Positions 41,401-44,400 of a stretch of 64,000 nucleotides of DNA are shown here, in pieces. Every line of letters begins with the position of its first letter. Position 1 is the first letter of the stretch. This DNA comes from Candidatus Eremiobacteria bacterium (GTDB lineage Bacteria > Vulcanimicrobiota > Vulcanimicrobiia > Vulcanimicrobiales > Vulcanimicrobiaceae). Made by a program: the position numbers. The DNA lies in assembly GCA_963758295.1 (NCBI GenBank), contig CAVWUU010000004.1, positions 1,056,001 through 1,120,000 of the forward strand, in the 5' to 3' direction.

Positions 41401-44400
41401 AGAGCAACACGATGACGCCGGCGAACACATAATGACTCCAGAGCATCCACGCGCCGTACGCAATGAGCGCAATTGACACGACGGTGCCGGGGATTGCGCG
41501 AATGGAGCGCCTCTTTTCTTCCATGATGCCCATTGATTCGTCCAGCTCGCATGCTTGTCTTATGGCGGCAACGTGAGCCGTTGAGACTATGACGGGGGCA
41601 GTGATGAGATGCGCCTGTCCTTCGACGGGCTCAGGATGACGAGCGGAAGATGAAACGCGCCTGTCCTTCGACCAGCTCAGATGACGAGGGCAGTGATGAG
41701 ATGCGCCTGTCCCTCGACGGGCTCAGGATGACGAGGGCAGTGATGAGATGCGCCTGTCCTTCGACCAGCTCAGATGACGAGGGCAGTGATGAGATGCGCC
41801 TGTCCTTCGACCAGCTCAGATGACGAGGGCAGTGATGAGATGCGCCTGTCCTTCGACGGGCTCAGGATGACGAGCGGAAGATGAAACGCGCCTGTCCTTC
41901 GACCAGCTCACATGGCGAGGGAACAAAGAAAAAGAGCCACCGAGAAAACGGTGGCCCTTTTTTGTGTCCGGTGGAGCTAGTAGCGGCCGTTGGAGCTTTC
42001 TTCGTAGCCACGTGACATCGAAAGCGCTTCTTTGGTGACGGCTTGCAGAAACTCTTCGTTGTTTCGCGTTTGTGCCATCTTCTCGAGAATCATCTCGGTG
42101 ATGTCGCCGCTGTTAAGCGCAGCGCTGACGCGGCGAAGCATCCATACCTTGCGCATCTCTTCCGCAGTGAGGAGCAACTCCTCGCGACGCGTGCCCGACC
42201 GCTTGATGTCGACGGCGGGGAAAACACGCGATTCGGCGAGTTTGCGGGTGAGGTTGAGTTCCATGTTGCCGGTGCCTTTGAACTCTTCGAAAATCACGTC
42301 GTCCATCTTCGAGCCGGTCTCCACGAGAGCGGTGCCGATGATGGTGAGCGATCCGCCGCCTTCGATCTTGCGTGCCGCGCCGAAGAAACGCTTCGGTTTG
42401 TGCAGCGACGCCGTATCAAGACCGCCGGAGAGCGTGCGTCCGGAAGTCGGAACGACTTGGTTGTACGCACGGGCGAGACGGGTGATGGAGTCGAGAAGAA
42501 TCACGACGTCCTTGCCCATTTCGACGAGGCGCTTTGCGCGCTCCATCGTGAGTTCGGCTACGGCCGTGTGATTCTCGGGATGCTCGTCGAACGTCGAGGC
42601 GACGACTTCACCGTCGATCGTGCGTTGCATATCCGTTACTTCTTCCGGACGCTCGTCGACGAGCAACGCGATAATGTGCGCTTCCGGATGATTGATCGAG
42701 ATGCCCTGCGCGATATTTTTCAGCAGGGTCGTCTTGCCGGCTTTCGGCGGTGAAACGATTAGCGCGCGCTGACCTTTGCCGATGGGGCAGAACAGGTCGA
42801 TGACACGGGTGGAGAGCTGCGTCGAACGATTTTCGAGGCGAAAACGCTCCTCGGGGAAAATCGGCGTGCCTTTTTCGAAAACCGCGCGGCCCCGAATCGC
42901 TTCGGGATCGTAGCCGTTGACTTTGTCGACGCGAATGAGACCGTAGTACTTTTCGCTCTCTTTGGGGCGGCGAACTTGACCTTCCACCATGTCGGCGCGG
43001 CGCAATTCGAAGCGACGAATTTGCGACTGGCTTACATAGATGTCATCGTTTCCGATAACGTAGCCGCCGCGACGTAGAAAGCCGTAGCCTTCCGGAAGAA
43101 TGTCGAGGATGCCGCTCGCCATCTCCAGACCCGAGCGCTGTTGCTGCCCGGCCAGAATTGCGGCGACGATCTCATCTTTCTTCATCGTCGTCGGGTTGCC
43201 GAGAACGATTTCATGTTCTTGGGCAATCTCGACCAGTTCGGCTTTTTTCTTGCCTTCCAGATCGGCTGCCGTCAACATCGGCGGACCAGTTTCTACAGTA
43301 GGAAACTGATCGTGCTGTTGATACTGATTGTTGAAATGATGACGGCGGCGTGGACGGCGGCGACGACCACCGCTTCCTTGCGGCCCACCATTGGGGTTTG
43401 GGCGATGTTCCGTTTGCAGAGGACTTGTCTCTCTCGTAGAGCCGCACATATGAAACGAGCGATCTCATCACGGGCGAGGCTGCCACGCGCGGATCGATTC
43501 ATATGAACGAGGGGATTGAACGCAGTCACTATATCACACGCAATCTGCACACGACAAGACGCGTTGTAAGCCGACTTACGGTGAAAGCGCCTTCGGACCG
43601 CTAACGAGCGGATTGCCGCGTTCGTAGAAACGAAGCCGGCGCGTTGCAGCGCGCGTGATGCCGATCCGCCGACTGCTGCCGACCGGCGAACCGAGGCTTG
43701 CCGGTTCCGCCACCCATAACCCGCGATCGGCCGGAAGATATGCGCCGTCTAGCGAGCGGTCGATGTCGAGCGCCTGGCACAGGCGGCCCGGGCCGCGGCA
43801 GAGATCGCGGATGACCAACGTGCGGCGACGCATTTGCATGAGCTTGAGGCCCTCGACCGGCTCCAATGCTCGCACAAGGACGCCGGCTCCGATGCCCGCC
43901 GCTTCGCTCCCGACGTTAAAGCAGAAGTTGGCCCCGTAGATGAGGTAAATGTAGGCGTGGAAGGGCTCGCGGAACATTGACTGATTCCTCGGCCGTTCGC
44001 CGATGTAGGAATGCGATGCCGGGTCGTTCGGGGGATAAGCTTCCGTCTCGATTATTCGGCCGGCGGCCAAGCCATCTGCGCTTTCCCGAACGAGCACATA
44101 GCCGATGAGCCGCCGCGCAAGTTCGACCGTTTCAATCGGCAATTTGCTGAAGTCGGCGCGCCGGAGATCCACGGATGCCGCATTATGCGGCAGAATGCAT
44201 CGCGACCTCTGCACGCGCACGTTCAGTAAGGTCGATTTCCGCACACGGCTCGACGGCGTACTTGCGGAAGCGATTGAGCTTGCAGCGCAGGCGGACATAC
44301 GGAAGCACGAGTGGCGGAGGGACGTCACGGTGGTTCGTCAGATCCTCGACGAGCGCCGCATCGGGTAGAGAGAACGCCACATTTTCGACGTTTCTCTCGC

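Follow-up and report, generated by a model that had tools for sequence, protein, structure and literature searches.

The gene for Rho in an order of soil bacteria (Eremiobacterota) very probably begins translation at a CUG codon, and comparison of 138 distinct loci strongly supports translation of a basic, arginine-rich N-terminal arm from that start. To our knowledge, no more than a handful of core genes in bacteria have an established, conserved non-canonical start, and the addition of rho and rpsA in a single order suggests a means by which termination capacity could be coupled there to translation initiation. The comparison also corrects the Rho N terminus in considerably more than 100 genomes, in which gene callers misplace the start at scattered positions. 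Across the order the locus provides a natural series of intact Rho, Rho without Walker A and deleted rho, which bears on the function of the disordered arms of Rho and on how lineages come to live without it.

The window, by which we mean the whole 64,000-nucleotide stretch analysed, carries on its minus strand an open frame of 495 codons that encodes Rho, bounded upstream by a stop at 43465 and reaching 41977. The protein has the domain order Rho_N (PF07498, residues 53–96), Rho_RNA_bind (PF07497, 102–173) and ATPase (PF00006, 204–408), and carries PPKAGKTT and LLDSITRL, which we take to be intact Walker A and Walker B motifs. The genome-wide survey's note had described a GAGAGAG element, a CTG and an open arm frame before the called Met, and all three were found again here: the CTG (43419–43417) lies 3′ of GAGAGAG (43435–43429) after a 9-nt spacer, and the first Met past it is codon 48 (ATG, 43278). 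The CUG layout of that note stands, but its account of upstream starts had omitted an in-frame ATG of this genome (43449), which a longest-ORF scan of the window picks to give a protein of 490 aa. Because a promoter-like site ends at 43528, the rho leader would be about 100 nt long, with transcription predicted to start near 43521; among 137 loci, 122 have a TGnTATAGT-type element no farther than 170 nt upstream.

Table 1. Features of the rho locus, in window coordinates
Feature	Position	Strand	Remark
mpg (methylpurine-DNA glycosylase), upstream neighbour	43576..44160	-	synteny anchor
Promoter, sigma-70 type: TTGTCG, 18 nt, TG-extended TATAGT	43528..43557	-	consensus match only
C tract, single-stranded, foot of leader hairpin	43509..43515	-	candidate Rho contact
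P1, long leader hairpin	43443..43509	-	covarying basal stem
Apex GGC-AGCCUC-GCC (GGCAGCCTCGCC)	43473..43484	-	3-bp stem, near-invariant C-rich hexaloop
In-frame ATG, 10 codons upstream of CUG, in P1 3′ strand	43447..43449	-	judged not to be the start
P2, small hairpin, CUCU/AGAG pairing GAGAGAG	43429..43441	-
Putative CUG start codon	43417..43419	-	comparison of 138 loci
N-terminal arm ("initial region"), 47 codons	43279..43419	-	Arg block at 43365-43342
rho coding sequence from the putative CUG	41977..43419	-	480 aa; intact Walker A/B
Intrinsic-terminator-like hairpin 3′ of rho	41929..41962	-

We gathered 200 rho loci, one of which lacks the EGYGF anchor motif; 154 are distinct, and an arm start was placed in 138 of these. 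The 16 distinct loci left out comprise L026 and L187, whose frame breaks within or below the arm (the L187 genome shows CTG by eye), L188, which has lost the arm, L189–L196 from the sister order and L197–L201 from other classes. Some tallies take in the unpublished genomes G100, G130, G147, G153, G161, G163, G178, G190, G276 and G298; one of the 138 loci, L018, comes from G130, and no conclusion rests on any of these genomes.

The arm opens with CTG in 129 of the 138 loci, with TTG in 6 and with GTG, ATT and ATC in one each. The earlier claim of a CUG conserved across the order thus holds for these 129, and all nine remaining loci use other initiation codons; ATG occurs in none. The survey had seen no other Leu codon in loci with the GAGAGAG element. 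In the present set CTC, CTT, CTA and TTA take the place in 0 of 138 loci (though they make up 58% of the Leu codons in the long ORFs of this genome), and the six TTG loci lie outside those with an exact GAGAGAG. At six other invariant Leu columns of Rho all six Leu codons are in use, and the start column changed 6 times on the tree compared with 21–55 times at those columns, counts in which kin are not independent. Codon 2 (CAA) is also nearly fixed, with 3 changes on the tree, so part of the constraint acts on the whole region. As judged by comparison, 131 of the 138 loci have a conserved start outside AUG, GUG and UUG (CTG, ATT or ATC). In the sister order the apparent start, read by eye, is GTG in all 8 loci, with CAA as the next codon in 7.

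Could the CUG be an RNA element or an ordinary Leu codon, with translation beginning at a nearby ATG, GTG or TTG? Such codons are present in frame upstream in 75 of the 138 loci, among them the ATG at 43449 here, and within the arm in 50. Nevertheless, we consider this reading very improbable, because the alternatives are scattered and poorly equipped: the upstream ones sit at varying offsets with a Shine–Dalgarno (SD)-like run at 3 of 99, and SD-like words precede 3 of 76 downstream Mets and 0 of 52 mid-arm codons. In 41 of the 138 loci there is no ATG, GTG or TTG between the upstream stop and the Arg block, which extends an observation of the survey to the larger set, and in 13 there is none before the helical N domain (K-x-K-x-EL helix). 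Substitutions at the start column are to start codons only. An in-frame stop lies at most six codons upstream of the start column in 21 of 138 loci. The frame of the element shifts with its spacing, as had been noted: the six codons upstream of the CUG read as 61 different peptides, and the six downstream as 22, with one form in 84 loci. The called Met is also replaced in relatives, as reported before, with Met in just 76 of 138 loci (otherwise L 41, I 13, P 4, Q 2, G 1 and T 1).

An exact GAGAGAG precedes the start in 91 of the 138 loci, followed by CTG in 89 of them and by ATT or ATC in the other two. Its spacing is 8 nt in 63 loci, 9 in 19 and 7 in 5, so that the range of 7–9 nt given earlier fits 87 of the 91 but fails in four, where it is 10 nt (2) or 4 nt (2). 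Under a looser pattern, a purine run precedes the start column in 133 of 137 loci. The 16S tail of this genome is canonical, which rules out a variant anti-SD, and its duplex with GAGAGAG is worth about −5 kcal/mol, compared with −10 for AAGGAGG. Given this canonical tail, GAGAGAG is a weak SD rather than a lineage-specific one; it stands before 0 of 897 confident ATG starts in this genome.

The arm is 41–55 residues long, with a net charge of +4 to +5 in all 138 loci. Its composition includes R 19%, P 13%, Q 13% and G 10%, and the RRRR-x-RRR block and N/Q/H-rich stretch described by the survey are present in the window as RRRRPRRR, at arm residues 19–26, and an H/N/Q-rich stretch. The arm is probably disordered: residues 1–45 have a pLDDT below 50 in an AlphaFold model, which, being poor overall (mean pLDDT 53.8), supports disorder weakly. 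We also considered the arm-coding RNA as a selected rut site and ruled this out, because four-fold sites hold no extra C (0.58 in the arm versus 0.645 in the core); the excess of C over G in the arm therefore reflects amino-acid content. In the sister order, as read by eye, the arm is far longer, rich in R, E, P and D, and opens at GTG. The description of the arm as unannotated proved true of part of the databases: of 53 Rho matches, 23 have no arm, but 14 hold all of it from an upstream start and the other 16 start within it or cover part. None of 23 aligned database proteins starts at the CUG position. With database starts so scattered, the arm is better described as wrongly started than as hidden throughout.

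The leader motif and C-rich tract that the survey had called conserved recur in 122 and 125 of 137 loci, respectively, the tract under a loose pattern; the loop of the motif is near-invariant and its stem sequence varies. In the basal stem of P1, 87% of cells are paired, double changes occur at 10 of 13 pairs and none of 500 shuffles scored as high; the stem was chosen on single folds before the counting, an order that gives it an edge over slid controls. It agrees in 53 held-out leaders, which were fitted to the model and so are biased towards it. The single-sequence fold of the window leader is ordinary (z −1.04), and RNAalifold on a MAFFT alignment recovered only the 3-bp apex. P2 is 91% paired, a −2 slide pairing nearly as well; in the held-out leaders it is 96% paired, and 23 of those 53, essentially one clade, show a double change from U-A to C-G. 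Its energy in the window is weak (−2.7 kcal/mol), and the pairing probability of the SD is slightly higher than in SD-led control genes (0.53 versus 0.44). Pairing between the SD and the CUG was rejected as a cause of CUG conservation, as it showed no covariation and 500 of 500 shuffles were as high.

Searched with the covariance models of Rfam 15, positions 43250–43650 gave no match at E ≤ 10. A model of the leader matches rho alone in this genome, and the other three exact loop-motif matches there lie outside any such leader. The same model found nothing in two of three rho-less genomes and an E 0.09 match elsewhere in the third, and nothing convincing in family f2, in genera g25, g27 and g30 or in the sister order. 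The hexaloop apex is absent from family f2 and genus g25; since f2 has retained the CUG all the same, the link between codon and loop is not an obligate one. Of 138 leaders, 136 have more C than G, with a pooled skew of 0.14 and much of the leader paired, and the skew of 0.069 in this genome is a modest bias, matched by 22% of 758 control genes. Together, these comparisons support the leader as a conserved, rho-specific RNA structure and a candidate cis-regulatory RNA.

The most surprising lead is a lineage in which the motor of Rho has decayed. Rho of genus g2 has lost the Walker A GKT and the SGTRREE segment, and usually the Walker B Asp; among loci L333–L370, GKT occurs only in L368 (genus g46) and L333 (genus g27) and in none of the g2 rows covering the site. 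To the window Rho these loci have a median identity of 0.47 across the ATPase region, compared with 0.73 across the RNA-binding domain. Of 38 matching g2 genomes, 36 have one PF07497 locus each, the two further matches being in fragmented assemblies. From these sequences we infer that g2 Rho is ATPase-dead. CTG, loop and arm are kept in all 30 g2 loci (28 by pattern; L362 and L365 by reading), where the SD is stronger and lies inside a stronger hairpin. This retention of CUG, loop and arm without GKT suggests a role dependent on RNA binding and not on ATP hydrolysis; it favours binding over termination, and fits any motor-independent function equally, the initiation-factor reading discussed below included. 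Genus g32 resembles g2, g27 keeps GKT with other changes, and g30 is without arm and leader. PF07497 has no match in five near-complete genomes of genera g3, g9, g11 and g28, and in the five rho-less genomes mpg directly adjoins a pseudouridine-synthase-like gene.

A start-codon comparison that took in 8 genes found infC starting with ATA in 26 and ATC in 4 of 30 loci, and rpsA with ATC in 28 and ATT in 2 of 30. By eye, the starts of pth are mixed (ATA 8, CTG 3 among 18 loci), as are those of phoH (TTG 11, CTG 7, ATG 6 and GTG 1 among 30, with 5 unclear or unread). The candidates hflX, coaD and a PaaX-like gene were dropped because their near-cognate starts are not conserved; in this genome rpsL starts with GTG and dnaA has in-frame ATGs. 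General use of CUG starts in this genome was also rejected: an SD precedes 34 of 496 in-frame CTGs (0.069) and 54 of 729 CTCs, with control codons at 0.05–0.10 and ATG at 0.22, although a few dozen CUG genes could escape this crude test. By comparison, then, a few gene-expression genes of the order appear to hold near-cognate starts, as in Deinococcus, where the CUG start of rpsL and the AUC start of dnaA were shown by proteomics (Baudet et al., PMC2830850). Such starts are also known for infC (AUU, AUA or AUC) and E. coli pcnB (AUU) (PMC2830850; PMC5499595). These cases and those of the order are alike in being lineage-wide near-cognate starts of core information-processing genes for which regulation is proposed or, for infC, shown; they differ in the genes, here rho (CUG) and rpsA (AUC), and in the support, proteomic in Deinococcus and comparative here. 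The word "rho" is absent from the Deinococcus paper (PMC2830850).

The CUG and the folded leader probably keep Rho scarce and self-regulated. We prefer a reading in which a weak CUG start is set in an autoregulatory leader bound by Rho, and give this mechanism as a whole slightly less than an even chance. The rho transcript would arise from its own promoter, and initiation at the CUG would yield a 480-aa Rho with its basic 47-residue arm ahead of the N domain. The CUG, the weak SD and the SD-pairing hairpin P2 would together slow ribosome loading, allowing Rho to compete for its own structured leader. The RNA-binding domain, aided by the Arg arm, would make contact with both the C tract and the C-rich loop of the apex; bound there, Rho would block initiation and so lower its own expression, and with an intact motor it would probably also terminate the poorly translated rho transcript. 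Parts of this scheme have precedents: leader-mediated autoregulation of rho is known from E. coli, Salmonella, Caulobacter and B. subtilis (PMC11599450), the weak GAGA SD of E. coli rplY is needed for its autogenous repression (PMC10931766), and disordered Rho insertions aid engagement of structured RNA, that of M. tuberculosis being needed at structured rut sites (PMC13650167).

The known rho leaders resemble this one in having their own promoter, a leader of 100–150 nt and C-rich parts; they act by Rho-dependent termination, whereas the leader here covaries and outlives the ATPase motifs (PMC11599450). If g2 Rho is ATPase-dead, a Rho-dependent attenuator of the E. coli or B. subtilis type cannot apply as such in that genus. 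The autogenous E. coli rplY and rpsA operators likewise have a weak GAGA-type SD, a folded initiation region and a repressor set against the 30S subunit, although the repressor there is a ribosomal protein and here would be Rho, whose binding is predicted (PMC10931766).

The survey had proposed that the CUG may place Rho synthesis under initiation-fidelity control. By analogy, control of rho through IF3 or initiation fidelity is plausible: IF3 should discriminate against CUG, so the set point of Rho probably also moves with initiation fidelity. The structured, conserved leader is at least as strong a pointer to autogenous control by Rho. We think it unlikely that IF3 coupling is itself the selected function, with rho, infC, rpsA and often pth and phoH released from repression as IF3 activity or the quality of ribosomes declines, an arrangement that would tie termination capacity to translation state and is compatible with Rho autoregulation. 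It draws on the near-cognate starts of infC and rpsA in every locus compared and on those of pth, on the two separate rho loci that went from CTG to ATT or ATC when none went to ATG, on CTG being no general start in this genome, and on E. coli IF3, reported to accept AUG, GUG and UUG only and to place CUG in the rejected class (PMC5499595). However, 7 of the 138 rho loci, spread over at least two lineages, have TTG or GTG, which IF3 accepts, and the eight sister-order loci all show GTG at the apparent start; phoH swaps CTG, TTG, ATG and GTG freely, as if CUG were an ordinary weak start; and the conserved hairpin and loop are left unexplained. Autogenous repression and IF3 coupling could also be joined, with Rho both a member of an IF3-sensed near-cognate set and self-repressed through the hairpin, the circuit and arm outliving the motor and g2 Rho persisting as an ATPase-dead RNA-binding protein. 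This conjecture we rate no higher than IF3 coupling as such; if true, it would expose a termination-independent function of Rho with intermediate steps towards its loss, sister genera having deleted rho.

A simpler account, in which CUG and leader just hold Rho low with neither feedback nor signal, would suit the fact that every alternative codon is a weaker start, never ATG, and CUG initiation in E. coli is put at 1–2% of AUG (bioRxiv 10.1101/063800). We nevertheless find it rather improbable, because a near-invariant loop on a covarying stem suggests a ligand and damping alone needs none. Such a ligand might be something other than Rho, whether protein, sRNA or small molecule, that recognises the AGCCUC loop, the weak CUG serving as the output stage of a switch; the loop stays invariant while its stem varies and is kept where the Rho motor has decayed, and an sRNA is reported to act on the Salmonella rho leader (PMC11599450). 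Yet no candidate factor was found, the motif occurs at rho only and no alternative fold is supported, SD–CUG pairing being without covariation, and we give this possibility a smaller chance again than simple damping.

Arms on Rho, autoregulation of rho and conserved near-cognate starts are each already known. A literature search at the level of titles and the openings of abstracts found no report of a CUG-started rho, of this leader, of an AUC-started rpsA, of a sole Rho without Walker A or of Eremiobacterota Rho. N-terminal initial regions, such as Rho type 2a carries, occur in 18.7% of the Rho sequences surveyed by Moreira et al. (2024, PMC11347177), and the Arg-rich ones are proposed to extend RNA binding by Rho (PMC11347177). 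Those of type 2a share with the arm more than 25 residues before Rho_N, an R/Q/N-rich composition and predicted disorder (PMC11347177). The class has no insertion separating the N and RNA-binding domains; given the CUG start, the window Rho has 52 residues before Rho_N and 5 between these two domains, in keeping with type 2a. What sets the present arm apart from the type 2a regions described there is its shortness, its conserved RRRRxRRR block and its dependence on the CUG start; moreover, the ATPase domain in that study is highly conserved, unlike that of g2 Rho without Walker A (PMC11347177). The main text of that study contains neither Eremiobacter* nor "start codon", and its supplements may list a Vulcanimicrobium Rho (PMC11347177). 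The database protein named as Rho of Vulcanimicrobium alpinum, a cultured member of the order, (P0055) is the g2 form, and its annotated start lies 24 residues upstream of the arm.

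Among the relatives gathered for the comparison of the transcription terminator Rho, the ATPase motifs are decayed in the sole Rho of genera g2, g27, g30 and g32 (loci L333–L370, together with P0055, a database protein named Vulcanimicrobium alpinum Rho), and the Walker A residues GKT are absent from the proteins of g2, g30 and g32. The RNA-binding domain is still conserved across these loci despite the decay of the ATPase motifs, and rho of g2 retains the arginine-rich arm, the CUG and the leader. Judged by these motifs, one whole genus is a candidate for carrying a catalytically dead Rho throughout.

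Elsewhere the gene is gone altogether. In five loci (L371–L375, from genomes G012, G014, G055, G092 and G022), rho is cleanly missing, along with its leader, from between the methylpurine-DNA glycosylase gene mpg and a pseudouridine-synthase-like gene, and many further near-complete genomes of the same family yield only weak, ATPase-level matches. Rho has been lost inside the family.

Where rho is present, its leader and arm also vary. An additional 5′ hairpin, 100–150 nt upstream of the CUG, separates the −10 box from the C tract in L019–L030 and many other loci; the source genome is without it. The leader hairpins differ in family f2 (L111–L115) and in genus g25 (L117–L121), and in g25 the start has shifted to TTG or GTG with a longer Shine–Dalgarno spacing. 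In the sister order (L189–L196), the arm apparently begins from GTG and comprises 150–300 residues of low-complexity sequence rich in R, E, P and D. In L026/L094 (G048), L333 (G058) and L084 the reading frame is broken once, within the arm or close to it; these breaks are probably assembly errors of long-read bins.

Near-cognate codons also stand at the apparent starts of other genes of the source genome (G000) and its relatives, listed below with two features near rho. For pth, the ATAG letters may overlap with the stop of the upstream gene. The three candidates seen in a single genome belong to genes for an aminotransferase-like, a secreted-type and a PASTA-like protein.

Positions of near-cognate starts and of sequence features near rho
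Feature	Position	Strand	Loci	Start codon
rpsA (S1)	G000:C2:288031	−	L213–L242	ATC (28) or ATT (2) behind a Shine–Dalgarno element, 30/30 loci
infC	G000:C2:186853	+	L303–L332	ATA (26) or ATC (4), 30/30 loci
pth	G000:C2:148581	+	L413–L433	often apparently ATA, or CTG; TTG, GTG and ATG mixed in
phoH	G000:C4:106126	+	L273–L302	switches between CTG, TTG, ATG and GTG within the order
Candidate start	G000:C1:513395	−		ATT/CTG after a Shine–Dalgarno element
Candidate start	G000:C6:146413	−		ATT/CTG after a Shine–Dalgarno element
Candidate start	G000:C4:825267	−		ATT/CTG after a Shine–Dalgarno element
Tandem repeat	window 41700–41915			
Leader apex letters	window 43476–43483			

The tandem repeat, several copies of a unit of about 45–50 nt, lies immediately downstream of the rho terminator, and a short element similar to it occurs within the rho leader of L336. 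The apex letters of the leader are similar to the GCAGCC segment within the 530 loop of 16S rRNA (compared with L181); this resemblance may be due to chance.
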